A stretch of 63,742 nucleotides of DNA, the filler included, from Folioceros fuciformis (lineage: Eukaryota), in the NCBI GenBank assembly GCA_049999805.1. It is 9 parts of 9 records of this genome, joined end to end, with 100 filler letters (N's around TTAATTAATTAA, not from the genome) between each part and the next. Parts side by side here need not be neighbours in the genome. Positions count along the whole stretch, not along the records: positions 8,003 to 18,162 come from JBNGIO010005102.1; 8 more parts are not named here. One strand, written 5' to 3'. The notes under the pieces were generated by a model. That model had not been told where the DNA came from and did no database searches. It worked only from the letters and a program-made list of their open reading frames with translations. Made by a program: the position numbers and the translations under genes. Shown in pieces: positions 7,145 through 42,400 of the stretch (the first letter of the stretch is position 1; each line of letters starts with the position of its first letter).

Positions 7145-8099
7145 ACCACTCTCCTATGAAGGTAAATTGGCCTTTGTGAACCTCCAAAGTTTGGGGTAGT
7201 AGTTTGTTTTGGTTGAAAAAGGGTTAATAGTGGTATGGTTTGGTTTTCTTTTTCAACTTATTTTCCCTAATTTTCCTTGATTTTCTGGTCATTTTTCCTA
7301 TTTTTCTTTGTGCTAATTAAGTTAATTGACTAGGAAATAGTTGGTTTGGTTATAAGAGTGGGTATAGGTTTGGTCCCAGAGCTGGGAAGGTTTAGGTTCG
7401 GTACCGGGCCATAGGGTTGGGTGATTAGTTTAATATTAGTTAAAGATATATAATATTAAATAATAAATATTAAAATAATATAATAATATAATAATGGTTT
7501 GAACATAGGAACGGGTATCTGGGTATGTCAGTGTCAGGGGTCAGGGTCTGACGATAGGCTGGCTGATTGCTTGGCTGACATGAACGGCTGTGGAGGCCAT
7601 GCCCTAGCTAGAGCTAGAGGCAGGGGTTGCAGCCGCCCCCATCCCCTTTTCTCCCTTTCTCCCTTCCTCCTCCATTCCCTTCTTGCCCCCTTCCTCTTCT
7701 TCCTCCCTTCCTTCTCAATCTACCCTCCTTGTTTCTTCCATTGGATCCAAGTTGCAGGTAGGGATGCTGGCTAGGCTATCGACACCAAGTGTTGGAGATC
7801 ACAACGGATTGATGCAGGTCCAGCCAGGCTTCTCATGAGCTGTTGGGTCCAGCCTGCTAGCTGCTGACCAAGGAGCAAGGAGGCTGCAGCGCTGAAGGAG
7901 AGNNNNNNNNNNNNNNNNNNNNNNNNNNNNNNNNNNNNNNNNNNNNTTAATTAATTAANNNNNNNNNNNNNNNNNNNNNNNNNNNNNNNNNNNNNNNNNN
8001 NNTCATAACCTTAATCACTCTTACCACTAATTAGTACAAACTCAATAAGATGGATTAGCGCAAATTAATCTCAACATTAATTATGCTTAACACGCTACC

Positions 8100-11000
8100 A
8101 GCTTCCCCACACCCTGCTATAGCGTCGTCCACCTTGACTACTTCAAGGAGGTAACCAGCCCCCAAGTCTTCCCCTCCCTGAGAGGTTCCATCTTAACTCT
8201 CCTTTCTCTTGAAGGCATGAGGACGTTCCTCCTCTAAATGCCTAAAACTATTTGCATCCACCACCCTTGAAGGCTTTCCGGACTCCAGCCCTTGGCTGAC
8301 ACCCGAAGGAGATACCTCCATCACACCTTGAGGGCTAACCCCCTGGGAAGAGAGACAGTGGTCGCCACTACCTCTCCTCCCGTGCATGCCCACTGCTCCA
8401 CCCCAATCTTGGCGACACGGGATCTATTTTTCCTTCCAGCCACCCGGTCACCCTCGTGGAGCGCGTCCTGCACCTCAGGGGTTGTCGTAAGCTCACGACA
8501 CGATTCCACCACCTGATCATCCTCGACAGCGTCCCCGAGAACAGAAGTAGTAACCGCTGTTGTGCGCTTGACAAGAAGACCTTCAGTCACCACCACCTTC
8601 CCTCCCTGAACAGAACCGGCCTGGGAAGCTCTGTCCCTAAGAGCCTGCGGCTCCTCCGCCTCGTACTTCTTCCTTGAAATTCCTCCACCCCCCGAGCATG
8701 AGGCATCTTGCCCTGGTCCCCAATTCGACTGCGAAGAAGACAAATCCTCCACACCTCGTAAGCGGACACCATGAGAGGGTATCCCCAACGTGACTCCACA
8801 AAAAAACCTGGCTATTGCAGCTTCGCCTGTGAACGCCCGCACATCCTCCCCCATGCCTAAGGTCTAGGACCTTTTAACTCCTTCTGCCACCGTATCACCT
8901 ACCAGCGTATACCTTCCTTCACCGCCGAACTCGTCTTTTGCTCACAAGCAGAGCATAGCTCCTGGTCACCCATCGTGGCATCCCTACGAACGGCATCAAC
9001 ATACTCAGTCTGGAGCAGGGCGGTGAGGTTGCCAGCCGAATCCCCTTCCAGATCTGCCCTTCCCCTTGCTGGTTCTTCATCCAACCCAAGGCTCTTCTCC
9101 CCTTGCCGGACCAGAAGCTCACCGCTAGGCCCCAGTCCCCTAGAGGGTTCAAAGCCACTTCCTTCCGTTCACGAAGAAGATCCTCCACCTAACCTCCCAC
9201 ATTGTCAACCCCGAGGATTATCATAGGATTTACACTTTGGAGCTTGGCCGGGGGGATTCTGGTCGAAACCACCTCCCTTCCCTGAGAAGTCCCCACCTAG
9301 GAAGTTCTAACCTTGGATACCGGCAGATCGTTGGAGCATGTCAACTTCGTTGCAGTCGTTCTTCACAAATCTCATGCTGTGCTCACCGGCTGAGCTCTCC
9401 CCCTGTCCTCCCGTCGTGTCGTCCCCACATGCTTTATCAGCAGATGTCATTTGGAGCGAGCCGCTGAGACTTCTAGCCAACACCTCCATCTCTCCCTGAA
9501 GAAACCCAGCATGGTCTCCTTTATCACTGGAGATCAGCTGGTCTCCCGTTTTCCCCCGGCCTGACTGGTCACACCCTACACCGCTTCCCACGCATATCTG
9601 TGCTCTTGACTTGGTTTGAGAGCAAAGCCCAGGAGCCCCATGGCCTTTTCCATTGTGTTGTCCACACTCCCCCCGACTAGCACCATCTTGTTCCAGCCCC
9701 GCCTCCAAATCCGGGGCAAACTCAACATTCTAGCCCTCCCTTACGAATTCCACTTGTGCTTCATGGCCTTGTTGGGAGGCAACATCCTTACCCACCCCGG
9801 CACTGTTGAGAACCAATGGAGAGTATTCACCATCTGCCCACTGCCTCCTGAGAATTTGTAGAAGCTACCTCTAGGATGTTCTATAGCCCTAGCTCCACCA
9901 ACTGATTGACTCTCCGCCATGCCCCCACCGTTCTCCTTGGTTTCACACTCTTTCTAGTTCGGTATCGAAGGGTTGGCCCCTATACCCGGGAGCCGAAGAG
10001 CCTAGCATCCAAGGACTGGGTAGTGGAGCACCCCTGGGCCAAATTCTTTACGTAACCTCCCCTCCTCGACGACTCCCCGGTATCACCTTCTTGAGTCGCC
10101 TTTCCTCTGGCAAGCCCATGGGAAAACTCACCTTGCCTTGCTGGGCCAGCAGGACCACTTTACCTCCTGAACCTTCAGGCTGATCAGAACCACCTTTAGC
10201 TCCTAGTCCTTGGTGGCCGCCTAGGCGACACCCACAATCCTCAATACCCCCCTGCTGTAGCATTGGATTACGATGTTCCAACCTAGCACTATTTTTTGTG
10301 TACTCCCCTGCCTTGGGGTTTTGACCCCCCAGCTGAAGCTCCCCCTGAAGGCCTAACCAAGGTTTCTGCCTTGATCCCTGGCTATCCAGTGTGCAAGACC
10401 GTCTCACCCCACCTCGGATGGCCTCCTTATCAACTGCCATAAGTACTTCGCCCTTCTCTTGTTCTCCTGAGGGCTCAAAACATGCTTCTACCCCGACCTG
10501 GCTTGCTTCCTGGGAGATTCTTGAGGAACCCTCATGCGATTCGGGGTGAGCAAGTTGGTAAGCACCCCTACTTTGGTAAGGTCCCCCGGTTATAATCTTG
10601 CCATCATTTGCAGGGCCGATGGGACCCCTTGCTGGTGACGACCTAGTTGTCCGATTAAGCACCACCCTATCAAGATCCTCCTCCATAGGTACCGCCTCCT
10701 CATACATCAAATCTTCTACCCATTTAAGCTCCCAACTGGAAGTTTGATCAAAATTGGAGCGTTGAGTAACCTGAGAAAGCCAAGGTGTGCTTTGCAGACC
10801 ACTTTGGAGGCGAGCGTGACCCTACCCTTGCCAAACTTTGCATCTTTAATATTAGCCAGCAGCTAAGGCTCCCCCATCCACTGCGACACCTTAAATTCCC
10901 GAATGTGGCACTCTTCCCTCAGTTCAATAAGAGTGTTCACAAATAAGATAGACGAGCTATCCTCCTGTCTATGACACACCAGACTATGTTGAGCTTCCTA

Positions 11001-12370
11001 TAGAATCATTCCTCCTACCTGCTCATCAAATCCCAAACCGGCCTGCAACATACTCCAGACTTTCAGCTTAACTGTACTCCAAAGCTTAGGTAGCTGACCC
11101 TTCGACGACCCCCTTATCTGGAAAGATCGTGTAGGCAAGGCTCTAAGTTCTCCCCCCATCGGCATCCAATAGAAGTACTTATCATCCACTTTCTTCCTGA
11201 GGAGCACACAAAGCTTAGACTGTGCACTATTTACCACACCGTTCCCCGAGAAGAAGTCCTTCTGAATTTTGATTGCCCACCGCCGTGTGCCAGGGTTAGT
11301 CTTCCAGGGCTTCGAAGGGGCTCCTTAGAATCCCGGCAGGAGGCTTGGCGGCACCTGCGCCTGCTTCGTCTTGTCCCTACTGCTTCTCGATCCAGCTCGA
11401 AGAGGACATGCCTGCTTAAGATGGTTATGCAAGCCACACACACCGCACCTGATAGGGAGGTCAAGGTAATCAAAAAGCTGAGTAAAGCACTTAGCTAGGT
11501 CCTCTGGATCCCGAACAACAACTCCTTCCGGTAAAGCGTGAAGGCTATCCACCCTCACCCCACAGCGAGGTGGTTTGCTGCTATCGAAGAAACGAGAATC
11601 CACCTTAGGTACCTCCACCACCCTGCCAATGGTCTCCAGGATTTTGCGAATCATGGAGACAAGCTTAACCGGCAAGGCTGGAAGACCTATCCACAAAAAA
11701 TGCCGCTTGATTTTAGACTGCATGATTGCATTCCCAGGGGACCAAACCTCCACCACCACTGGGATAGAGTCTTAAACTGTCAGCGTTGTTTGCAAAAGGG
11801 CCTAAGCCCCAACAGCCTCATCTGAAAGGAACCGTCTACTTTCAGGAAAACATATGCAAGGGGGCATCCCGTTACTTGAGCCACCTAGTCCTCCAATTCC
11901 TTTACGGTAGGAGGACCACTAGACAGAAGCCTCCCCACAACCGAGCTGACAGCAAGCTTGCCCTCTTCCTTTTGAAAGAATCTCGCCTCAGTAAGCACAT
12001 CCGTGAGCGGACCCATCCGTAACCCTGAACCCTCTTTTGTTGAACCAGAGGCATATTCTTGGGAAGGGCCCGGCTGTACCTGTGCCTGTGCCTGTGCTTG
12101 TGCAAAATCCAACTCATCAAACCGTACCTGCGAGCCTTTCTCTACCGTGACATTTTTCCGGCTATCATCGGAAGGGTTAGATTTTTTCTCCCCCTTGTTT
12201 ATCCCCTGCGCCTTCTGTTTATTAGAGCACATACCAACTGCTGCCGCCCATGTGCTAACTGTTGAGCTCCCTCGTGGGGAGCTCATCGACTCCATTGAGC
12301 CATCGGGCTAGATCCTTCCCGGCGCCATCGTCACCCTACCGCGCGCTTGACTTAGGGGCTTCCGCTTCAA
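8100..12370 (-). mobile_element. Degenerate LINE-1-like ORF1 region (DUF4283-like plus zf-CCHC_4), paralogous to 28757-33180
   Basis: WIGLPALPV...IGRVVEV...DYLDLPIRCGVCGLHNHLKQACP (11325-11759). ORF fragments 10048-12295 align by eye with ORF 28776-30635. Confidence 0.75.
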
Positions 12371-12374
12371 CAAG

Positions 12375-14986
12375 GTTTAAAATGTTTTCAACATTGGATT
12401 TGAGGGGTGGTTTTAATCATATTGAAATTGAAGAGGAAGATAAGAAGAAGACTACTTTTGGGGTAATAGATGTTTGTGGGAAATGGGTGGTTATCCCAAT
12501 TGGATTGAAGAATGCTCCTAGGGCTTTTCAGAGAGCGATGGATCAAGCATTGAGAGGTTTGTCATTTACTAGATGTTATATAGATGATGTAATAATGTTT
12601 AGTAGCAGTGTGGAAGAACGTAAGGAGCATGTTAGGCGAGTGTTGGATAGACTGAAGGAGGTTGGTTTGACATGTCATCCACAAAAGTGCAGGTTTGGAT
12701 CCTCCAAGATAGCATATTTGGGACATTTTATAGTGCCTAGGGGTACGGCACCGTCTGATATCAAGGTTGAGGCGATAGCAAAAATGATGCCACCTTCAGA
12801 TGTGGGAACTTTGCGCTCCTTTTTAGGATTAGTAAATTATTATCGCAATTTTGTGGCAAACCATAGTGTGGTGGTGAAACCAATGACATTGTTGTTAAAG
12901 AAAGATGCAGTGTGGATTTGGGGAGAAGATCAGCAAAGAGCATTTAAGGAGATAAAGGACATTTTGATGAGCAAGCCTTTATTGACAAGACCCAATTTTG
13001 ACAGGAAGTTTAAGTTATATACAGATTAGAGTAAACTTGGTTTGGGAGCAGTGCTGGCGCAGAAGGATGAGAGTGAGGTGGAGCATGTGGTAGCGTATGC
13101 AAGCAGGAGTAACAATTCTACAAAGAGTAATTATTCCTCATATCATGGGGAATGTTTGGCGGCGGTATGGGCAGTATCACATTTTAGGCCTTATTTGTAA
13201 GGAGCTCAATTTGAGTTGGTGACGGATCATCAGCCTTTGAAGTGGTTGATGAAGAGTGAAAAGTTGACAGGAAAGTTAGCAAGGTGGGCACTTATTTTGC
13301 AGGAGTATAATTTTCTATTGAGCACAGGGCGGGGGTGAAACATGCAAATGCAAATGTATTGTCAAGGAATCCATTAGGAAGTTCAGAGGATTCAACAATT
13401 GCCAAGCAGGATTTTAATAAGAATATTAGGGTTGACTATAATCTGGTGGTGTCCAGATGGACACCGAGTGCATACTTGGTGAATTTGGTGGAGTTGGGAG
13501 TTCCTTCAGTGTCAGTAGATGTGTGGGAAGATAAGAATACATTGGAGAAGGTGATGACGGGTGGCAATCGGGAGGCGTTAGCGGTGAAGGAGAATGATAG
13601 GGTGACAAAGTGAAGTAAGAGATATGTATGGGTTGACAATAAGTTATTGTTTAAGGATGACATGAAGGTGGTACCAAGACTTGAAGAAAGAATGAATTTG
13701 GCAAAAAGATTCATGTAGAGTTAGGGCATTTTGGTACAAAAAGAACATTGAGTTTACTCATGAACAATTATTATTGGAAAGGAATGACGGATGTAGTTGA
13801 GAAGGTGGTGTCTACTTGTGAGGTTTGTGATAGGGTGAAGGCAAGTTTTCCAGGAAAAACTTCTCAGCTTCATCCGCTGCCTATTAGGGGGATGTTTTAT
13901 AGGTGGAGTTTGGATTTGGCTAGAGAGTTACTAGTTACGCGTAGAGGTTTTAAATATGTGTTGGTGATGATAGAACATTTTTCTAAGTGGATCGTTCTGG
14001 TGCCTTTGAGGGAGAAGAAGTCGCATGACATTAAGGAAGCATTTCTTAATCATGTGTAGAGTGTTTTTGGGGCTTGTGCAGAAGTTCCGATAAATCAAGG
14101 CATTGAATTTATGGGAGAATTTGATGAATTTTTAAATGAGTATCTTCTTGATCATAGGGTAACTTCAAAAAATCACCCGGAGGCTGATGGTTTAGCAGAA
14201 AGAATGGTACAGACATGTAAGAGTGCTTTGAGGAAATATTGTCTAGTAATGGACAAGAGTGAGTGGGATAGGATGTTACCTTTTCTTGCGATGGGTTTTT
14301 TGGATGAGTAGGCAAGCATCGCTGGGAAAGTTTTCACCGTACATGTTGTTGTTTGGGCGTAGACCATAGTTATCTGGATGTTAGAAGACAAGGTGAATGC
14401 TATGGTGGATTTGGACGATCTTAATAAGTGGTTAAAGATAGTCACGCATATAAGTGGTTAAAGATAGTCACGCATAGAGCGGAGTTGTTTAGAAGGATAA
14501 TGCCTATGGCAATGGATAATATGTTAATAGCTCAACATAGGGATGAGCTAAGATACATGAAAACAAGGAGTGGATATTTCAGGCCCAAGGTGAAAAAGTT
14601 TGAAGTTGGAGATTACGTATATTTGTAGAGGAAGACGATGACAACAATTGATGCAAGTGCGAGTAAAATACTATTAAGGGTGAGAAGTGTGAAGTTGAAT
14701 GGAATCTTGGAGATGGAGGGAAAGGATGGTACAACTCGTTTGGAACACATAAAAAATTGTGCACCATGTCATTTACCTCACTTGAATCCGATAATTGGTG
14801 TGCAAGCTTTTGTGGCGAGGAAGGGATTTGCTTGTACAGGTTGTGGAGATTGGAGATTATCATTGCATGTTGTTGTGTGATAGGTGCAATGATGGGTGGC
14901 ATACTTTTTGTTTGGAGCCTCCACTAGAAGTAGTGCCAGATGGGCAGTGGTTTTGTCCAATGTGTGTAGCGGTTGATACATTGTGA
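12375..14986 (+). pseudogene. pol: Non-chromoviral Ty3/gypsy pol fragment (RT-RH-INT) ending in a PHD finger
   Basis: FSTLDLRGGF, GLKNAPRAFQR, CYIDDV; RH LYTD*SKLGLG and TDHQPLKWL; INT YYWKGM...CEVC, HPEADGLAER; C-terminal CTGC...[12 protein letters not shown]...WFCPMC. Confidence 0.9.
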
Positions 14987-15075
14987 AGGGCAGTATGTTC
15001 AGCGTGTATTTATGTTGATGAAAAGTTTGTTAATCTGGCTTACCAACGAAAGATGGTCAGCAGATTAAGGGGGGG

Positions 15076-15677
15076 AGTGAAGGTGTCAGAGCGAGGGAGA
15101 AGGAGTAGAGGATAGCTATTCCTTTCGTTGATCTCATATGTAACAAACCACCAAAGAGTGGCAGGATGACCAATAGCCTTGGTATGCACGACGGAGAGGA
15201 AGCATCCAAGGGGAGGCATCCAAGTGCATTGTTGACAAGAATATACGCGTATATCATATAGGGGCTGGCCACCCCATATACACATGAATGCATACTATAT
15301 ATATAATATATATATGAGTGTTCAGAGATATCTGGGGTTAAGTTCACATGTTGAGGAGCAAGACCTCTTGAAGCACGACAGCTATCATGACTTAGAGAGT
15401 CTATTAGAGTTTTGCATTTGTGAGAACTTTCTGTGCAGGTTGCAACTGCAAAAGCTATTTGCTTGGGACAAATACACTGGCAAAAAGGGGTAATCCCTTA
15501 AGTTTTGACTAAAGAGACAGTTGGCAAGCAAAAGTTCTCGTGGAGGAACTGTTTAAGAGTAAGTGAAGGTGTCGCAGCGAGGGAGAAGGAGTAGAGGATA
15601 GCTATTCTTTCGTTGATCTCGTGTGTAACAAACCACCAAAGAGTGGCAAGATTACCAGTAGCCTTGGTATACACGAC
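15076..15677 (+). repeat. Imperfect ~117-bp direct repeat (15076-15192 / 15562-15677), probably LTR pieces of the PHD gypsy; 15384-15560 also resembles the sequence starting at 39496
   Basis: AGTGAAGGTGTC...GAGAAGGAGTAGAGGATAGCTATT occurs twice. TCATGACTTAGA(G/A)AGTCT(A/G)TTAGAGTTTTGCAT is shared with the 39496 region. First block ends TTGTTGACA near 15237. Confidence 0.65.
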
Positions 15678-16494
15678 TGAGAGTTCAAGTTGGATCAAGC
15701 CAGGCCAGTATCCACTCCCTACGCTCTGGGCACTAAGCTCACAGCTGATCAGTGCCCACAGATTGAGGAGGAAGCCAAAGAGATGCAAGGGATTCCCTAT
15801 CGTCACGTTGTAGGTAGCCTCCTCTTCGTCAATGGTTGGACAAGGCCTGACATCCAATATTACGTCTCCACGATATCCCAATTCTTGGATTCGCGTAGCA
15901 AGGCGCACTGGGCCACCATCAAGAGGGTGTTTCGCTACTCGAAGGGAACCCTAACATATGGGCTTGTATACTTAAGCGGAAGAATAGGCAAGCTCTCACT
16001 CACTGGCTATACGAATGCCGACAGGGCATCTGATCCAGACTCAAGGAAAAGTTTGAGCGCACATTGCTCCCTCTTATCCGCAGCCACAGTGAACTGCAGT
16101 TGCAAGAAGCAGACCTCCATAGCACTCTCTTCCACGGAGGCCGAATATAATTTTCTTACAGACGCCTCCAAAGAAGCTGAATGGAAAAAGGGCTTTTCTA
16201 TCCGATATAGGCTAGAAGCAAGATGAGCCCACACCCCTTCACTGCGACAACATGTCAGGCTTGGCATTGATATCCAACCCCAAATTTCACGCCAGGACAA
16301 AACATATAGAGATTCAGCATCACTACATCTGTGATGTAGTGGAGCGCAAGGTGGTACAAGCTGGCTATGTGCCTACAGAAGAAAACCTAGCAGACCTTTT
16401 GACGAAGGGCCTGCCCAAGTCGAGACATTACCAGCACATGCAGAGAATGGGACTTGTGGATTACTCACCCTACCTCTCTACCCACCAAGTATAA
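15678..16494 (+). pseudogene. Ty1/copia RT C-terminus/RNase H fragment, followed by PPT (16570-16578) and LTR start TGTTAAG at 16579
   Basis: PYRHVVGSLLF...TRPDI, IALSSTEAEY, FHARTKHIEIQHHYI, ENLADLLTKGL. Confidence 0.9.
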
Positions 16495-16859
16495 GGCAGG
16501 ACTCACCCCGATAGAGGGAGCATGACTGCTACTTAGCTCTTGACTATTGAGTTAGGTTATGTCTCATTTAAGAGGGAGTGTTAAGAATAGGGTTCAATTA
16601 AGTAACCCATAACCCTAGTCATCGATCAGTCAAGTTAGGTTAATCTCAGAGTTACCTTGAACAATCACACCCCTAGCGAAGTGGTGCGACTAGTACCTAC
16701 ATAAGAAACACTCATCTTGTATTTCTGATTATTATGCTAAATAAAGAAATGTAGTTTAAGTGCACAATGTTCCCCTACTTTCTACTAATAGGAAATTATT
16801 AAGCCAGCCCTAACTTTCTTGCAACCTCAGCCGATCTCACCCCTTCTACTGGCGTTGTT

Positions 16860-17800: not shown

Positions 17801-18262
17801 TGTTGAGATGTCACCCCCGCCATGCTCAAAGGAGGTTAAAACAAGTTAGTTGAAGCAAGATGCAGAATCCCAAAACTAAGAGCACTATAACAAGGCTCTT
17901 AAACTAAAATAAAAAGGAGAATTACAAAAACAACACAATACAAGTGAAGAGGGAGTTAGACTGCCTATACTAAGTGGGTTCATCCCTCCTTTTATGGACC
18001 TATGGGTGGCACTCTCATTTTGTGCCCAATATGGGATAAATGACCCCAACCAAACCCTACAATACTTCTTTTGCCCAACATAGCAAAGTCTAATAAGCTA
18101 TATATATATATATTAATCATAACCTTAATCACTCTTACCACTAATTAGTACAAACTCAATAANNNNNNNNNNNNNNNNNNNNNNNNNNNNNNNNNNNNNN
18201 NNNNNNTTAATTAATTAANNNNNNNNNNNNNNNNNNNNNNNNNNNNNNNNNNNNNNNNNNNN

Positions 18263-20363
18263 GGAGGTGCGAACGGAGAAGAAGAAGAAGGAGAAGCAGG
18301 ATTTGCGGCGTTCGCCTGCTTGCGGGAAGTCCTTGCTCAGGTACCTCCCGCACACTATGTACAACTTCACCATGAAGCCGCACCACCGGGCTCCCGACGG
18401 ATCCGTCAGGCTGGTGAGAGTGGGCGTCGGGAAATGGTACACCGCTGCCTTTCATGTGGCCACCACCATCGCCACTCCTGCCGCCTTCGCTCCCCTGCCC
18501 TTCGCCGTCGCCGCCTTGAGCTGGTCCGGAGGTTGTCCTGGTTCCTTCCTTCCACTCCACGTCCGTTCGTCTCTTGGGGTGTTGTGGGGGGCGCTGGTTT
18601 CTTCCCGCGTGCGAGATTTTTTGGCGGTTCAATCCGATTCTGTTGGCTCCGAAATGTGGTAGAATTGGCATGTGAAGGAGAGCTGAATTCGATGCGCATA
18701 TGTGCAGGGGCCGTGGCGCTAGTGGTCAGCACCCTGCTGGCCTGGTACTGCAGCATTCTGGTGGCCTCCTTGTGGGAGTTTGACGGCAGGCAGTACATTT
18801 CCTACAGGGAGCTCATGCATGCCATCTTTGGTGAGATAAGATTCGGGTACTGTCTTTCAAAGTTGTTTGTCGAGGATCAAGTGCTGCCAGCGTGCTGATT
18901 GTGCGTCAGGCTGTTGAAATCACGTGGACAGGGAGGTGGGGTTTCCGGCTTACTGTCTTCTTCCAGCAGGTTGCTTCCATAGGGAACAACATCGCCATCC
19001 AAATCGCGGCCGGCATCAGCATGAAGGTTTGGTACAGTGCCACGAGTTTGTGCAGGCTGGACTGAGTTCGAGTCTGGTAGCCAAGACGATGGTAGGCTGT
19101 ACGAGTTCATGAATTTCTGCGATCATGGCAGGCTGTCTACACGGTTTCCCACAAGGACCACAACTTCAACCTCCAGGAGTTTATCGTTCTCTTCGGAATG
19201 GCGCAGCTGGTGCTGTCTCAGCTCCCTGATATTTATTCTCTTCGTTTTGTCAACCTCGTCTGCATGTGCTGCACGGTGGGGTTTGCAGCCATTAGCACGG
19301 CCATGTCCATCCACAACGGTTAGTCCACATCCATGGTTCTTTGCTCGAAGGATAGTCCAGAATCTTTGCTAATCTTGCCCCCAAAACTGTTTCATCCTCT
19401 GTGTCCTACGTTTCAGGAAAGATGATGGATCGATCAAGTGTCGACTACGACTTGCACGGCTCAACGCCCGCCAAGGTGTTTGGCGTGTTCAGTGCTCTGG
19501 GAACAGTCGCCTTCTCCTTTGGCGATGCTATGCTGCCAGAAATACAGGTGACGTGGCTTGCCGTCTTCTTCTCCGTCTTGTAACTCTCCGTCACATGCAT
19601 TCACACAGTATGATAAGGGCCGGAAACCTGCTACTGCATTCCTCCAGGCGACTATCCAAGAGCCGACGAGGAGAAACATGTACAAGGGTGTGTCTGTTGC
19701 CTATACTATTATAGTCATCTCTTACTGGTCGGTGGCCTTCGCTGGCTACTGGGCCTTTGGATCAGGTGTTCAACCCTATCTCCTAAGCTCCCTTTCGACT
19801 CCAACATGGCCCATCGTCATGGCCAACATTTTCGCAGTGTTGCAGATGATTGGCTGCTATCAGGTAACCCGATGGAATGAGATCAGGCATTTCTTATTTG
19901 GTGGAAGCGAACATCCTGACACTCTGCTGGCATCCTCTGGCACGCATGAGATAGAAGATCCACTCAGGTGATTGCATCTTTGCAGATTTATTGCCGCCCA
20001 ACCTATGAGTACTTCCTCATCAAGCTCATGGACCCTGACCAAGGCCCCTACAGTGCACGGAATGGGTTGGGTCGATTATTTGTCACTGCTACCTACATTA
20101 CCTTGGTGACTCTGGTGTCTGCTGCGGCGCCTTTCTTCGGTGACTTCGTGTCCCTGTGTGGAGCTCTAGGGTTCACACCTTTGGACTTCGTGCTGCCTGC
20201 CTTGGCCTTCCTTTTTGTGAAACGGCCCAAAAATATCTTCTTCGTCACGTTCAACCTCGGAATTGCGGTTGCTTTCTCAGCTGTAGCCCTTCTTGGATCT
20301 GTCGGGGCAGTGAGATTTATAGCCACAGATGTTAAAACTTACAAATTCTTCAAAGATCTTTGA
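18263..20363 (+). CDS. Amino-acid transporter (Aa_trans family, GABA transporter/ProT-like), 5' end missing. Exons <18263-18531, 18708-18830, 18932-19026, 19132-19318, 19417-19547, 19648-19863, 19986-20363
   Basis: Six GT-AG introns join in phase. Motifs AAFHVATTIATPAAFAPLPFA, FFQQVASIGNNIAIQIAAG, LSQLPDI.SLR, AFSFGDAMLPEIQAT, YWAFG, IYCRPTYE, PFFGDFVSLCGALGFTPLDFVLP. Confidence 0.93.
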
Positions 20364-28756: not shown

Positions 28757-31700
28757 GCAGGTACGGCCTCCTGAGGTGGACTGTGCGCAGGCTCAGGTAC
28801 AGCCGGGCCCCTCCCAAGCATATGTCTCGGACTCCACAAAAGCGAGTACAGGGTTAAAGTTGGGTCCGCTAGCGGATGTGATCACGAAGGCGAGTTTTTT
28901 TCAAAGAGAGGAGGACAAACTCTCTGCCAGCTCAATTGTGGGGCGCCATATGTCTGGAGGTCCTCCTACCATGGAGGAACTAGAGGAGTGGGTGGCTCGG
29001 GTAACGGGATGCCCTCTAGTGTATGTTTTCTTGAAAGCAGATGGTTCTTTCCAGATTAAGTGTGACGAGGCCACTGGGGCGCAGGCTCTTCTACAAACAA
29101 CACTGTTCGTCCGAGATTCAGTACCGGTGGTGGTAGAGGCCTGGTCCCCCGGGAACTCCATCATGCAATCTAAAATCAAGCGGCATTTCCTATGGGTGGG
29201 TCTGCCTGCTTTGCCGGTTCAGCTCGTCCCATTGGTTCGCACAATTTTGGGGACCATTGGCAGGGTGGTGGAGGTCCCTAAGGTGGACTCCAGATTCTTT
29301 GACAGCACCAAACCACCTCGTTTCGGGGTGAGGGTCGACAGCCTCCAAGATCTGCCTGAAGGCGTAGTTGTTCGTGATGTGGAGGACCCATCTAAGAGTT
29401 TTACACAACTTTTCGATTACCCGGATCTTCCCATCCGGTGCGGAGTGTGTGGCTTGCATAATCATCTGAAGCAGGCTTGTCCTTTACGGGCTAGATCGGG
29501 ACTTCGGGGCGAGAAGGCACATTCTAGCCCCCTGCTTGGCTTCAAAGGTGCCCCTACAAAGTTCTGGAGGACTAACCCAGGAATGCAATTGTGGGCAAAA
29601 CAAGTTCAGGAAGTGTTCTTTTCGGGGAGCGGGGGCGTACACAATGCACAGGCTAAGCTGCGTGTTCTCCTAAGGAAGAAAATGGATAACACTTACTTTT
29701 ATTGGATGCCGAAGGGAGGAGACCTCAGAGCCTTACCTACACGCTCATTTCAGACCGGCGGGTCGATTGGGGGTCAGCCTCTTGAGCTCTGGTCTACCGC
29801 TAGACTAAAAGTCAAGGGCATGTTGCAGGCGGGTTTGGGGATGGATGAGCAAGCTATTAACATGATCCTGCAAGAGGCACGGCATAGTTTGGTGTGTCAC
29901 ATAGTGGAGGATAGCTCCTCTATCGTATTCGTGAATACCTTGATTGAATTGAAGGACAAATGTCGAATCCGAAACTTCAAGGTTTCGCAGTGGATGGGGG
30001 AGCCCCAGTTGTTGGCTCACATCAAGGATGCAAAATTTGGCAAAGGTAGGGTGACTCTAGCCTCTAGAGTGGTGTTCAAGGCACATCTTGGTTTTCTTGG
30101 GCTTATCCATGCCCTGATATCGATTAAACTCCCCGGCAGTTGCGAGCTAAGATGGGCAGAGGATATGACAGCTGAGGCTATGATGCCTATGGAAGAGGAC
30201 TCCAACAGTGGGGACGTAGGTAGTGCGGCACCAGCAAAAGGTTTTAAAGGTCCTGCAACTGAAGACAGGGGTTACATCGGGGGGGCCCATCAAAGGGGAA
30301 ATGCTCATCAGCTCAACAACCCCGCACCACAACAAGCGTCTTTTACTACCGGGCAGGAAGCAAGCATTGCAGGGATCGGACTCCGAGCTACACTATCAGG
30401 AGGAAAACTACAGGGTGGGATAAGTAAGGCAGCTGGTAGGACGGGCTTACAGGGGGAGTTGGGTCAACCTCATACACTGGGGAACCAAAGACAAAGGCAG
30501 ACATCCTGGTCAGCCTCTCATGGGGAGCAGCAGAGGGATCTTCAGAATCTAAAGGCAGGGAAGCTCCATAGCTTCCCGGATAAGATTGAGAAGCGCAACC
30601 TAGTGCCTCATCTGGGGAACGCGGTGGGCAACTAAGTCTTTCCAAGCTGTCAGCAGGGGGTTGGAGGTGAAAGACAACCTGATCAGTGTGTAGGTCCAAG
30701 GGGTAGGGCTGCTCCCTTGGCCCAGCAAGGTGGGGTGAGCCCTCCACTGGACGATGTGCCACTTAACAGGAAGGGAATTGGGGAAGGAGCTGATGGTACG
30801 TCGTCGGAAGTGGGGGGCAGCGCAGGGAACTTTGCCCCGGGGATTTCCACCTCCCAGCCTCTAGATGCATGGCATGTTGGCTACCCGTTGCCTGGTCCCA
30901 GCACTAGTTCTGCCTCGGCAATGGAGGAGGATGAACCTACTGATTGGGAGAGGCAAGAGGTGGAGCACACCAGTGATAAAGGAGTGGTCAGGTAGGAGGC
31001 CTTGCAAGCCTGGCAGTCACAACGAGCCTCCTAGGAGACGTCTGGAGGGTGTCAAGTTGGGGAGCTTCCGAACGGTGTTGCGTTCCAATTTGGCGAGGAG
31101 CTGTTCGGGCACCGGCTCCAAACCCTCCCTACGGCATTGTCCAAGAAGGGAGAGCAGTGCAAGGGGGAAGGATGGGGCAAGGTGGCGATCCATCCAGACG
31201 TTGGGGCCAGTGCTATAGAGCAGCCCATGCAGGTTTTACGAACGCACGTGTGTCCGAGCACTGAGAATGAGCTCCTCTCATCGCTTTCTAAGCGTGTTGA
31301 TGCAGGCACGGAGTTGGGCTCTTTGAGAGATCAAGACGCCGCAGTGGTTTTTGTTGAGGAATGCTTGCAAGTTGAGGCCTCCACGACCCCCATGGAGGGT
31401 CAGGATCAGGGTGGGGTGTGGCAGGGATTTGGTGGACATCAATATGGAAGAGCTCAGGGAGGTTTTGTGCCGGTTCCTCAAGCCAGGTCGGAAGCGAGGG
31501 TCCTGATAGGGAGTACTGCAGGCTGTGATCAGTCTGGGCTCGGGGATGTGGTAGACCGGTTGGCTTGCACCGACTCAACTCTCCAAGCAGAAAGTTTGCA
31601 GGGTGAGGCAGGTTCTTCGGTTGGCAGTCTCACCGACAAACTCAAGAAGGAATCCGTGGAAGCAGTAGAGTGTGACGCCTTGGTGGGAGAGCAAGCTGTG

Positions 31701-36667: not shown

Positions 36668-39495
36668 GTCGAGAAAGTTCCGATCATTGGTTTCTTGATT
36701 CTGGAGCTAGTGCACATGTGTGTAACAATCATCAGCTCTTCTCAACATATCACAAACAAACAATGCCACAATCTATGTTTGTTGGTGACTCACGTGGTGT
36801 TGGTAAAAGGGGTAGGTGTCGTTAACATTCCTTTGCTAGATGGCACCACTCTGCATCTAGAAGATGTCTTGTATGTTTCGGCCATGAGTAAAAACTTGTT
36901 GTCCATAAGAGCTATTGCACAGAGTAAGTTGTATGGGTTCCGTTTTGAGGACAGAAAGTGTTATATGTATCACTTGTCACACCCTGATAAGCACATAGCA
37001 AAGGCAATTTTGGTTAATGACTTGTCAACTAGTCACAGTTGCTAAGTCTAAGGCTAAAGCCTTGTTTGCTGCTTTTAATGTTGAGGCTAACCTTTGGCAT
37101 GCTAGGCTTCGACATGTTAACGGGGCTAAGTTAGACCTCATGTCGAACTCCAATCTCTATCAAGAGAAATTGCCTAGTTGCTTCAAGCATCTGTCAACAT
37201 ATGCTCCTTGTATTTTGTCAAAACAAAACGAGCAGCCCTTCAGAAATAAGGAGCCTACACGGGCTAAAGAGATTCTGGAGCTGATACACGCTGACATAGT
37301 AGGCAAATTACCTGTCAAGAGCTTAGGTGGCCCTGAATATTATCTGTCTTTGACTGATGACTACTCCAGAGACACTTGGACCTTTCACTCAAGCTGAAGA
37401 GCGATGTCTTTGAACACATCTCCAGTTGGATTCACATGGTTCAGAGGCAGACAGGAAAGTTAGTGAAGTGCTTTAGAACAGACAATGGAGCAGAGTTTAT
37501 AGGTCACAAGTTTGACGACCTGTTTGAGTAGTTTGGCATCACATGGCAACTTTATGTTCCTTATACACAACAGCAGAACGGGGTTGCCGAAAGGAAGGAC
37601 CAGACGTTGATGGGGATGACAAGGAGTATGCTGTCTTGGGCCTCTCTACCTAAATCCTATTGGGCAGAGGCTGTAGTAGCAGCTACCTACATCCACAATC
37701 GAGTTGTTACATTAGCTGTTCCAAACAAAACTCCCTATGAAGCTTTCTGTGGTAGAAAACCAAGTCTGAAGCACTTACGTGTTTTTGGGTCTCCTGCGTA
37801 TGCTTACATACCTGAACCTAAACGCAACAAGTTAGAAAACAGGGCCAAGCGCCTAGTGTTTGTAGGTTATTCTGAAGAGCCTAAAGCCTACAAGCTACTT
37901 GACCCTGAGACTTCGAAGATAACTTTAACATGTAGTGTTACTTTTGACGAGTTGCTCAGCCCTCAGATTGCACAGTCCTCTAATCCCTTATTACATTAAG
38001 ATAAAGCATCATCATCAGATAAGGTAGGAAACTTATCTGATTATCCACAGTCTGATGGAGAAGCTCCCGATCCTATAGATCACGCTGAACTAGATTATCA
38101 GTTAGGCCTACAGGCTCTTGTTGATGGTGCACATCACAATCCTCAGCCAGATGTTGCAAACTATGAGGGGGATGTTCCACCTGAATAGGATGCAGTTGTT
38201 GTTGACCTTGCAGAGGAGGAAACTTTTGATGACCCTCCAGCAATTCTGGCTCCAAACTCACCGAGGTACCCTGTACGCGAAAGGAGGTCACAAGATCAGT
38301 GGTTAGAAACACCTTACCAGTCTATTGGTTTCAGAAGACCAGCTGCTCATGTCACAAACATACATGTCCCTGAGGTGAGGCCTGATCCTTAGTCATATGA
38401 TGAAGCTTTAAAGGGACCTGACGGTGCACATTGGCGTGCCTCTATTGATGACGAATACAACAGTCTAGTTAAAAATAACACTTGGGAACTTGCCGATCTC
38501 CCACCAAGCAGGAAGCCTATCACCTGCAAGTGGGTGTTCAAAACTAAGCTACAGGCTGATGGGACAATAGCACACTATAAGAGTAGACTTGTAGCTAGGG
38601 GGTTTTCTCATATACCTGGAATTGACTATGGTGACACCTTTTCTCTAGTTGTGAAACCACCCTTTGCCCGCATCCTTCTTGCTCTGGCAGCAGAACTTGA
38701 CTTGGAACTTCACCAGATGGATGTCTGTACGGCGTTCTTACATGGTGAGCTAGAGGACGTTCTCTACATGGTGCAACCCCAGGGTTTTGTTAGCAAGAAG
38801 TGGCCAAACAAGGTCTGTAAATTATTGAAGACCATATATGGCCTTAAGCAGAGCCCTCGAGCATGGTTTAAACGCATCATGAAGTTTCTTTGTAAATCAG
38901 GGTTTGCACAATCACCAGTAGATAGCAATGTGTTTTACTTATCTAAGGGAGGTCTCTTTGTTGTGCTAGCATTGTATGTTGATGATGCTATACTCTTAAG
39001 CAACAACACGGTACAGCTTGATAAGGTGAAGGCTCTCCTTCGTAGTGAGTTTGAGATGACAAACTAGGGTCCTCTTCAGTTTTGCCTTGGAATCAGATTC
39101 TGCGAGACCGAGATCAGGGTGTTATTACCCTACATCAGATTAAATATATCAAGGAGATTTTAAAGAGGTTCAACTTACATGTGGCCCAGCCTGTCACTAC
39201 TCCATGTGTTGTTGGCGAGAAGCTTACAACAGCTCAGTCACCTTGCACAACAGAGGAGGAAGAACATATGTCCAGTGTTCCATATGTTGAGGTTGTAAGG
39301 TGCCTGATTTTTTTGGCTAATTGGACTCGTCCCGACATTAGTTTTGTTGTTAGCGTTGTTGCCCAGTTCATGCAACACCCAGGTTCTCATCATTGGGCTG
39401 CTGTCAAGCGCATCTACCGCTATCTGAAAGGGACAATCACCTATGGCCTATGCTATACTGCTAGTGGCAAGTGCGAGTTCTTACTTACTGCCTTC
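36668..39495 (+). mobile_element. Degenerate Ty1/copia pol (PR, INT, RT)
   Basis: WFLDSGASAHVC, LWHARLRH, LELIHADIVG, RTDNGAEF, QQNGVAER, KSRLVARGF, QMDVCTAFLHG, LYVDDAI. Confidence 0.92.
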
Positions 39496-42400
39496 TGTCA
39501 TGACTTAGAAAGTCTGTTAGAGTTTTGCATCTATGTGAACTTGCTGTGTAGATCGTGGTTACGCAAGATGTTTACTCAAGATAGATAAGTTCGAAGAAAG
39601 GATAAATCTCTTGCGTTTTGACCAAAGAAATAGTTGACGAGTGGAAAGTTCGCACAAAGGAACAATTGGACAGAGCGCGTTTTAGTGGTTAATTTTGTGT
39701 ACGGTTGAGAATGGTTTAGGAATGACCATCCAAGTTGTTGGTAACGGAATGTAGGGAGTACATAGCGATCGGGAGTGAATGATAAGACATTCTTTTGATA
39801 GTTCGCTTAGAAAGCTTGATATAGAGAACTACGCACAAAGTGTTATAGAATCATCCATTTTAAAAGCTCATGGTAGACTAAGCAATTGAATCATAGGTTT
39901 TGCATTACAACTTTGCATATGCACAAATCTCTGCCTAGAAGAACGATGCAATGCCATGACGCAAAGCAGAGTCAGCTTGACATCTTAAAACTTGTTATAA
40001 TAAAAAAGAATGAAGTTCTTGAACATTAGAAATTGAGCATGTGTATGGGTTTCTCATGTTTTGGGAGCAAAGTGTTTTGTTTGTGAAAAGGGTAGCTAGG
40101 TGAGAGTGTTGTGGCGGTGCTGCAAAGTATTGTTTAGTTTCAGTTTATGTGATCGAATGGGTAGCCTTGTTGAAGTTTGAAGGGTTTGGAAAGTTTGTAA
40201 GCGTGATTGTGGAGAAGGGTTAGGCATTGAGTAGGCTAGAGGGATTGTGGGAGTGTTAGTGGAGCAAGTTTTCTAAAAGTTTTGTCTAGGGATGAAAGTT
40301 GCCAAGGTCAAAATGTGTTGGGTTGAGGTATGAGCAAAGTTTTTCTTTCATCCTGTTGAAAGATGAAGAGAGAGAGAGGTTGTCCCGTAGTACTGGAGAG
40401 GGAATTTAAGGCGATGGAGCGTGAGGCAGCGGGGCAGTGCATGAGGAGAACTTTGCGGAGAAAGGAAAGCAGTGGAAGGCGCAGCTATGGGGGGCAAGGG
40501 GAAGGAGCTTGCCGGAGGTTCGGGAGCTTCTAGGGCACGAAGCAAGAAGCAAGCAAAAGGTCGCTCCGGAGCAGCGATTGCGGCCAGGGTCACGAAGGCT
40601 CAACTTCTCCAGCAGCTTGAAGAATAGAAGGCAGAGTTGGAAAGGCTCAGGTGCGGCCTGAGTCCTAGGTTGGAAAGATTGAGAGACGTGGTGACAAATG
40701 TATGTGGACCACCTGTGTTGCCTGCGGTGATGGGTAGCCCAACTGTATCTCAGTCGGAGGGAACGGGAAAGACTTGCGCGGGGAAGTTGGGAGAAGCAAA
40801 TGTCATTGTGTTGACAGATCACGAGCAAGAAAAAGGGGCGCGGTGTGATTGCGGTGAGGTTTTGCCGAAGGGGTTGCTGCCGATAGCGTGCGAGCAAGAA
40901 AGCGTGGCAGAGCTGGCAAGAAGTGCTCCGCCAAAAGTTCAGGGGGTTGAAAAAGTTGCAGCGTTTCCAAGAAACGGGAAGGAGGCAGTGCATGCGTCTG
41001 GAGAGGAGAGCGAGCCGCCAAAGAATGATGCGCCAGTAGCATGCAAGGCAGGAGAGGAAGGTGGGCTTTCGGTAGGAGTCCTTCCGGTGACGTTGGTAGG
41101 AGGGGTCGAAAGCATACTGTTGGGAGAGGGTTTTTTAGGGGTGTTGACAAAGGGGAAGGAGGGTGCGACACCAGGGGAGAGTTTCATGGCAGCATTGTTA
41201 GCATGCAAGGAAGACGCGCCTAGGGAGAGCGAGTTGTCGAAGGAAGGCTCTTTAGCAGGCAAGGGGCTCACATCGAAGGAAAGTGTTATTTCCAGGATGG
41301 GATTTTTTGGCAACGCCAACAGTAGGCAAGGAAGATACGCTACCAAAGGGAAGTTTTTCTGTGGTGCTAACAGCAAGAGAGGAAGATGCGCTGCCAAAGG
41401 GAAGCCTTTTTGTGGTGCTGACAGCAAGAGAGGAAGACGCGCCGCCAAGGGGCTTTGCGGTAGTTGTAGCAACAGGAGTGGGAGACGAATTCTTAGAGAA
41501 GGTGTCGCCAGTAGCATAGGCGACTGAGGGAGGTGGTGGGTTGCTAGCGAAGGGTTTTGCAGCAGCGCACGCGGTGGACGAAGGGCCTACCAGCGGAATT
41601 TACTTACCCGATAGTTGCACCTGCAACACTAGACGCCGAGTTGGTGCAGGAGGAGGTTTCGCCAGTAGCGCTGCCAAGGCCGAGGCAAAGACGGTTGCTG
41701 GAATACAATTCCTCGTCTCAAGAGGTGAGCAGCGCCAGCAAGGAGTTGACAAGGGAGGAGCAGAAAACGGCTACAAAACCGCGAGAAGTGGACGTTGGAG
41801 CGGAAGAAGAATTTTGTGGTGGTGATCAGGATTCTTTGCCACTTCAATGGAATTTGCTGCAGACGCATAGGTTTTCCAGAGAGGAGCTGCAATAGTTGCG
41901 AGAGGAGACAGAGTGGGAGGTGGAGGAACTTGCGACAGAGATCGCTGAGCGGATAGCAGAGAGAGCCAGGCTTGCAGTGCTGCTAAAGGATTTGCGAACA
42001 AGGGAAGTGGAGAAGAGGCATCAGTTGGAGGAGATTGTCTCCACAAAGTTGCTGTCCGAAGGGGGAGCGACTTCCGTTTTCAGCACACTCAAAGGCAGAT
42101 AGTTGGATGTCGCCTATGAGGTTATAACTAGGCAGTTTCAGCAGCTCAAAAAGAGCGAGTCGCCACAGGTGAAGGGCAGAGTGGGGAGCAAGCGAAAAGC
42201 TTCAAAGGGGCCTAGATGGGTTGAAGACTATCACGAGCGGGACCCGCCCAGGAGGAGCTCAAGTTATCAAGCCAAAAGAGGAAAGACATATCGAAGGGGC
42301 TTCGCCAGATGGAAGGTTGGTGAGGGTGCAGTAACTGGGGACCTTCTTGTGAGAAGGTCTAAGAGACTTAAGTTAGAAAAGTTTGAATCAGAAGCTGCAG

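Follow-up and report, generated by a model that had tools for sequence, protein, structure and literature searches.

Chromodomains are the textbook means of chromatin choice in gypsy elements. A gypsy copy of Folioceros fuciformis carries a PHD finger at the end of its integrase. The copy lies on the contig at 8003-18162 of the 63,742-nucleotide stretch of contigs, joined by N linkers, that was analysed here (the window). It raises the question of whether the PHD finger is a genuine part of the integrase and, if so, what it does there.

The PHD finger of the window copy

Pfam profiles of RT, RNase H, H2C2 integrase and catalytic core are matched in gypsy order in the window copy, and the order PR-RT-RH-INT, the H2C2 integrase and 4-bp target duplications mark the family as Ty3/gypsy. 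The features of the window copy are as follows.

12379..13026, + strand: reverse transcriptase, 5'-truncated (RVT_1 92.4 bits)
13030..13335, + strand: RNase H, interrupted by stops (RT_RNaseH matches)
13685..14308, + strand: integrase H2C2 and catalytic core, broken (Integrase_H2C2 56.2 bits, rve E 8.7e-5; tblastn to sister copies)
14599..14778, + strand: putative integrase SH3-like beta-barrel C-terminal domain, stop at 14626 (model, conservation)
14833..14965, + strand: PHD finger (C4HC3), frameshift near 14851 (PF00628 38.7 bits, copy survey)
14984..14986, + strand: pol stop codon, six residues past the last PHD Cys (same position in sister copies)
15067..15077, + strand: polypurine tract adjoining B1 (same tract before B at 10 other loci)
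15078..15380, + strand: repeat B1, TG...CA (similarity to other copies)
15381..15382, + strand: two-base spacer of the B|A junction (palindrome of CA-GC-TG type, one base decayed here)
15383..15561, + strand: repeat A2, with an internal deletion (repeat A is ~503 bp when full)
15564..15683, + strand: repeat B2, interrupted by an unrelated copia-like piece (91-92% identity to the start of B1)

The original prediction was of a C4HC3 PHD finger spelled by two frames directly after the integrase C-terminus, and both frames are found as described. The frame of the integrase tail (from 14629) runs on to C-T-G-C, with Cys at 14833 and 14842. This first Cys pair (14833-14844) belongs to one frame; the remaining six ligands (14876-14965) follow in the next, which ends with W-F-C-P-M-C before the stop. 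The second half alone scores 38.7 bits against PF00628 in a Pfam profile search of the window (cut-off 24, E 1e-9) and is therefore not a chance match. The C4HC3 ligands together with a score above the curated cut-off identify a PHD finger, and open-frame copies match the whole profile, so that the Pfam test proposed with the prediction gives a positive answer.

Two bases are deleted near 14851, and the resulting frameshift is private to the window copy. A DNA search of the same genome gave 45 matches, and in the best 20, that is, the window copy and 19 others, none of the 19 has the deletion; the break is shared by 0 of the 28 other copies that span all eight PHD ligands. Further stops and frameshifts lie in RH and INT (e.g. 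stops at 14057 and 14626), and the copy is truncated at its 5' end inside RT at 12378, where similarity to sister copies starts. The window copy is a dead, 5'-truncated Ty3/gypsy element.

The block between the catalytic core and the PHD finger has neither a GPY/F motif nor an SH3_Tf2-1 Pfam match, and we read it as SH3-like from its sequence and strand pattern. It is all-beta in a model of the natural copy L011 (pLDDT 81-87 in most 10-residue blocks), a model that leaves the mutual arrangement of the domains undefined (pTM 0.34), and its identity is 45-58% across seven distant relatives. No Pfam match to Chromo is found in the window pieces, in L004 or L011, or in the 2386-residue frame of the sister family described below.

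The integrase–PHD fusion in other copies

The original prediction proposed to look for intact copies in which integrase and PHD finger form one open frame, and named copies that lack the PHD finger, or carry it out of frame, as the sign of a one-off captured host exon. In a survey of 39 loci, one per contig, 38 extend into the PHD finger and one match stops before it. All eight ligands are spanned by 29 copies, and 17 of these keep every ligand; 17 of the 29 have no indel from the SH3-like domain to the PHD finger, and nine have neither indel nor stop. The copies beyond these 29 and the match that stops early are partial. In two copies, L004 and L011, the reading frame stays open from the region of the integrase core to the end of the PHD finger, and the full PF00628 profile (1-47) is matched. 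A sister family, with about 48% RT identity to the window family, encodes PR-DNMT-RT-RH-INT-PHD in one frame of 2386 codons (L138 2209-9369, G000:C5196). Whole-profile PHD scores are 35.8-44.8 bits in the open frames of L004, L011 and the sister family. With these open fusions and a frameshift that is private, the pattern named as the sign of a captured exon is not what is seen. The sister family is young, several of its copies being 97-100% identical (L168-L175), and such copies suit dating and insertion-site comparison.

In 245 distant pairs among 33 copies, dN/dS is 0.12 for the PHD finger and 0.11 for the core end. In close pairs (n = 283) it is 0.42 versus 0.17-0.22 elsewhere; the pairs of both sets are not independent, and the sample includes decaying dead copies. 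The high value in close pairs may reflect Cys and Trp codons that are decaying in dead copies. Identity to seven distant relatives is 47-62% in the PHD finger and 6-28% in the linker. These data support a genuine PHD finger that is shared across the family, reads in the frame of the integrase and is kept by purifying selection.

The DNMT3-like domain and the split terminal repeats

Complete copies read Gag-PR-DNMT-RT-RH-INT-PHD and are about 11 kb long, one contig giving about 11.2 kb from A1 to B1. The DNMT motif I and motif IV region is found between PR and RT in three copies of the window family, and all solved matches of the sister-frame DNMT are to DNMT3A/B/C (29 of 29, best E 9e-10). The window copy itself lacks this domain, being 5'-truncated. 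Motif IV of DNA methyltransferases is usually P-C; here it reads E-C-Q. The domain lies at these positions:

L027 4028-4822; L030 4111-4794; L138 5173-6138: DNMT3-like cytosine methyltransferase, encoded after the protease and before RT

The stop after the PHD finger had been predicted to be followed by LTR-like repeats. The stop is in place; an ordinary 3' LTR is not, as the repeats are split into B1, A2 and B2. The layout of the window family is A1-ORF-B1-A2-B2, of which B1-A2-B2 is seen in the window copy, with an internal deletion in A2 and a truncated B2. Complete copies start at their 5' end with repeat A (~503 bp), for which the genome gives 29 matches, and repeat B (~460 bp) directly follows the polypurine tract; other copies have an extra ~160-bp tandem unit within B1 that is absent from the window copy. 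The sister family has the same A/B layout, with repeat sequences unrelated to those of the window family. Of its ten distinct copies in which the end of B1 is read, four run on into A2 and five or six end there. Its B|A junction forms a palindrome with CA-GC-TG at the centre, which extends over 16 bases in the best copy. The window type of junction is also present in L030 and in three of the four sister copies with A2, the fourth having one change. DIRS-like split repeats with a palindromic B|A junction are found in both related families (window 15078-15683; L030, L042, L052, L061, L170, L172, L173, L176). The DNMT3-like domain together with these repeats places the family with the Gypsy-DNMT3 elements.

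Exact 4-bp target duplications flank three of six solo A-B units examined; the other loci are a near-copy of an exact one, a mismatched one and a truncated one. One A-internal-B copy, the interior of which is partly unread, also has a 4-bp target duplication. None of the four exact duplications is of the NCGN type. A conserved stretch follows the end of A in the 5' ends; it is a candidate primer binding site, to which no tRNA has been assigned.

As the polypurine tract is directly followed by B, a canonical repeat of the form B-A would be expected. Inserted copies nevertheless have A at their start and B at their end, that is, they start and end in the middle of the repeat relative to the expected reverse-transcription ends. 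The arrangement suggests integration from a circle, on the palindromic B|A junction. Circular cDNA would be opened by the DDE integrase at the palindromic B|A site inside the terminal repeat, and A-internal-B-A-B would then be an opened two-LTR circle and A-internal-B an opened one-LTR circle, both opened at B|A. With a DNMT3-like domain and permuted end repeats, such a lineage would be missed or mis-bounded by ordinary LTR finders.

Distribution among relatives

Two protein searches (best 120 of 198 and best 120 of 171 matches) gave 221 distinct proteins, which with the sister frame make 222, and their domains were mapped by BLAST. Because the queries contained the PHD finger, PHD shares among the fetched proteins are biased upward. 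Among the matches listed, 195 of the 222 proteins have the order core-SH3-PHD, and a PHD finger is present in 198, with all eight ligands in 194 of them and an SH3-PHD gap of typically 14-22 residues. It is terminal (tail shorter than 20 residues) in 35 of the 198 listed, and chlorophyte-type members are long-tailed. Named hosts among the matches listed include Coleochaete, Marchantia, Haematococcus, Volvox, Pleodorina, Tetrabaena and Monoraphidium. Closterium-type members have the DNMT domain and lack the PHD finger, which, judging from these proteins, is dispensable in part of the lineage. Of 13 candidates in a metagenome search for related DNA, two were weak loci of no further use.

A quick RT-RH tree of 76 rows, made up of hand-picked fetched proteins and 13 rows of the same genome, was built without bootstrap and with long branches flagged. 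In it, 56 rows of the DNMT/PHD type form one clade (SH-aLRT 96), within which the Coleochaete and Closterium proteins both fall. This clade is apart from the SH3_Tf2-1-bearing (chromovirus-like) and Athila-like elements of the same genome; the tree holds no named REXdb references and is therefore not a formal classification. Inside the clade, 20 rows with the DNMT domain between RH and INT form a clade of their own (support 100). Given this position in the chlorophyte relatives, the domain has either moved or been gained twice. The predicted replacement of a chromodomain by a PHD finger holds only for the position in the integrase: the lineage groups apart from the chromovirus-like elements in this tree, and two proteins (P0159, P0175) carry DNMT, integrase, PHD finger and, right behind it, a chromodomain in one polyprotein.

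Some relatives (P0033, P0078, P0108, P0128, P0155) have a G-patch domain before the integrase. The Marchantia gene Mp7g09570 (P0021) was considered as a domesticated gene and rejected, its sequence looking like a patchwork of protease-end, DNMT, INT and PHD pieces; a gene model laid over an element appears more likely. Mp7g09570 is not named in the literature searched.

What the PHD finger reads

The closest solved PHD fingers (70 matches) are those of KMT2D, KDM5A/Lid/KDM5B PHD1, KMT2C, ATXR5, CHD4, WSTF, BAZ2A/B, UHRF1 and BHC80, and a fold search returns the PHD fingers of BAZ2A, ATXR5 and BHC80 with rmsd 1.4-2.5. The residue two before the His, the position of the aromatic-cage Trp for H3K4me3, is aromatic in only 2 and Gly in 176 of 194 relatives among the matches listed; the aromatic cage of H3K4me3-reading PHD fingers (ING/BPTF/TAF3) is absent. 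The finger resembles those of KDM5A/KDM5B PHD1, BAZ2A, ATXR5, BHC80 and UHRF1 in the 11-residue first loop (172 of 194 relatives), the M/L-L-L-C-D strand, the P-x-G-x-W pocket and the lack of a cage. Unlike them, the window family has no acidic residue before the first Cys, and its reading is predicted from sequence.

In KDM5A PHD1, H3A1 is held by L309, P331, G333 and W335, H3R2 by D312, and K4 is contacted by E305 and L308 (10.1101/715474). At the positions of L309, P331, G333, W335, D312, E305 and L308, the alignment gives L, P, G, W, D, D and M, respectively, for the window family. Among the 194 relatives in the matches listed, the R2-binding Asp is kept in 188, the Trp in 190, the Pro in 171 and the Gly in 157. 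An A1 pocket and an R2-binding Asp of the KDM5 PHD1/BAZ2A type are present, and we infer from these residues that the PHD finger fits a histone H3 tail reader of the unmodified-H3 type. The E305 position is E or D in just 91 of the 194 relatives listed. Selectivity for K4 is less sure because the position of KDM5A D292 is Lys in the window family.

Proposed role of the integrase PHD finger

The PHD stretch is the normal integrase C-terminus of a lineage of the Gypsy-DNMT3 type. The integrase consists of catalytic core, SH3-like domain, a linker of ~18 residues and the PHD finger, which would stay on the integrase after protease cleavage. The PHD finger would bind the free N-terminus of H3 through A1, R2 and K4 if the latter is unmethylated or lowly methylated, and would so hold the integration complex on nucleosomes that lie outside promoters marked by H3K4me3. 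It would thus do the job that the chromodomain does in chromoviruses, with a different mark. On balance, we think it somewhat probable that integration is tethered to H3K4me0 nucleosomes through this predicted H3-reading finger. If this is true, the PHD finger that green algae and land plants have at the chromodomain position would solve chromatin choice in a second way, by sensing that an active mark is absent. As the PHD finger is small, testing with peptides is easy.

Host DNMT3 reads H3K4me0 through its ADD domain. The PHD finger might likewise bind H3 and yet have no part in site choice: it might instead act for the DNMT3-like enzyme, or on chromatin at the new insertion, so that reader and writer would be paired as the ADD and catalytic domains are in host DNMT3. 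Such a role, which we consider rather unlikely, would agree with the exclusive DNMT3A/B/C matches of the methyltransferase and with the order RT-RH-DNMT-INT-SH3-PHD in 86 of 222 proteins (among the matches listed), because a DNMT domain between RH and INT could form one processed protein with INT-PHD. However, the DNMT domain of the window family precedes RT, far from the PHD finger in the polyprotein, Closterium-type members keep the DNMT domain without a PHD finger, and the PHD finger always adjoins the SH3-like domain of the integrase.

A role that does not involve histones, such as folding, multimerisation or binding of a host factor or of DNA, perhaps at the B|A junction, would fit the poorly conserved K4 pocket, and the unusual ends of the lineage may need extra recognition; some PHD fingers do have other targets (PMC10124903). 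On the other hand, the exposed A1/R2 pocket residues are almost invariant from algae to land plants, which a structural role alone would not need, and split ends are known from two families of the same genome, both of which bear the PHD finger. We regard a non-histone role as unlikely. That the motif is a captured host exon or a chance product of a decayed copy is suggested by its being out of frame in the window copy, but the break is private and open fusions occur here and in many other organisms; with the 2386-codon sister fusion and the core-SH3-PHD order in most of the proteins listed, this idea was rejected as highly improbable. Tethering to H3K4me0 nucleosomes by the integrase PHD finger is the reading that we prefer.

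Relation to known elements

In the element KnitGypsy-Dnmt3 (de Mendoza et al. 2018, PMC5890265), Pol includes a DNMT3, and the repeat structure is called 'the same as that of a DIRS retrotransposon'. The window family matches this kind: a DNMT3-related domain in a gypsy Pol, DIRS-like repeats and a streptophyte host are common to it and to the streptophyte Gypsy-DNMT3 elements, and the relatives found here also include chlorophytes with the DNMT domain between RH and INT. Because no named K. nitens sequence is among our matches, shared descent with KnitGypsy-Dnmt3 is inferred from architecture. The word 'PHD' is absent from the text and three supplements of PMC5890265, although Fig. 4c of that paper may show one. 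A PHD finger at the integrase end of Gypsy-DNMT3 elements is not mentioned in the available text of PMC6317226, PMC3350952, PMC5890265, PMC6338049 and 10.64898/2026.05.21.726589. A PHD finger at the integrase terminus was not found as a lineage hallmark in the literature searched; figures, Repbase, theses and large supplements could hold it.

A PHD finger in a gypsy polyprotein is already published, in the Gag-Pol of Gypsy-7a_cRei of Chlamydomonas reinhardtii, which favours intergenic sites (Craig et al. 2022, PMC9940879). The legend order RT, RH, PHD, INT suggests that this finger lies before the integrase, unlike here, and, again unlike the window family, no DNMT domain is listed and the LTRs are ordinary (PMC9940879). 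A Tetrabaena protein (P0222) with a PHD finger before the integrase, like that of Gypsy-7a_cRei, falls outside the 56-row clade in the quick RT-RH tree. PHD fingers are common accessory domains of green algal transposons (PMC8557442, PMC6673714) and follow gypsy-like integrases in Ginger1 (PMC2836005); REM1 is cited in PMC8557442, PMC6673714 and PMC9940879. Chromoviruses (Tcn1, Chlamyvir, Galadriel, Tekay, Reina, CRM; PMC6317226) share with the window family a chromatin reader at the integrase C-terminus as a presumed insertion guide. They differ in that the reader here is a PHD finger and not a chromodomain, that no SH3_Tf2-1 or GPY/F match accompanies it, and that the RT-RH groups apart from that of the SH3_Tf2-1-bearing elements of the same genome in the quick tree.

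The original prediction had named the Selgy clade as an example of PHD-bearing gypsy elements. The word 'PHD' is absent from the main text and five supplements of REXdb (PMC6317226), where Selgy is described as 4.4-6.7 kb long with a tRNA-Ala PBS and no extra domain, so that the link to Selgy is unsupported. Phygy is described there as 7.7-10 kb long with an NCGN target and no extra domain. Both clades are, like the window family, gypsy elements of non-seed plants without a chromodomain and with a 4-bp target duplication, whereas the window family is about 11 kb long and has DNMT and PHD domains, non-NCGN duplications and split repeats. Compared by these REXdb descriptions, identity with Selgy and Phygy was rejected on size and extra domains, and that with Phygy also on the target duplications. 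Troyka was rejected as a source of the odd ends, as it has CG..CG ends and 3-bp duplications, and neither plant nor PHD occurs in the text of PMC12440569. We suggest only tentatively, and with more doubt than assent, that an old green-plant gypsy lineage outside the REXdb clade descriptions combines a PHD integrase that would read H3K4me0 with a DNMT3-like writer and integration of circular cDNA.

Neighbouring sequences

A decayed L1-like element on the - strand (window 8000-12378) adjoins the gypsy RT, with DUF4283 (E 2.4e-5) and a weak zinc knuckle at 11328-11771, and a related L1-like copy lies near 28785-30133 in the opposite orientation. The piece that interrupts B2 (window 15681-16580) gives no Pfam match at E 0.1; its motifs suggest a copia-like RT/RNase H. 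A second, more diverged family member starts at window 39495-39641 (G000:C5105) with repeat A and has a gag-like frame ~3.6 kb downstream. Elsewhere in the assembly, a short contig (L149, G000:C6199) holds an Athila-like Pol in an open frame of 1168 codons, which looks like seed-plant elements; this contig is possibly assembly contamination. The contig next to that of the window copy carries a host amino-acid (GABA-type) transporter gene (window 18200-20363), a piece of which has at most 61% identity to any of 52 matches and so points to a plant host distant from seed crops; these matches include lycophyte, seed-plant and algal sequences.
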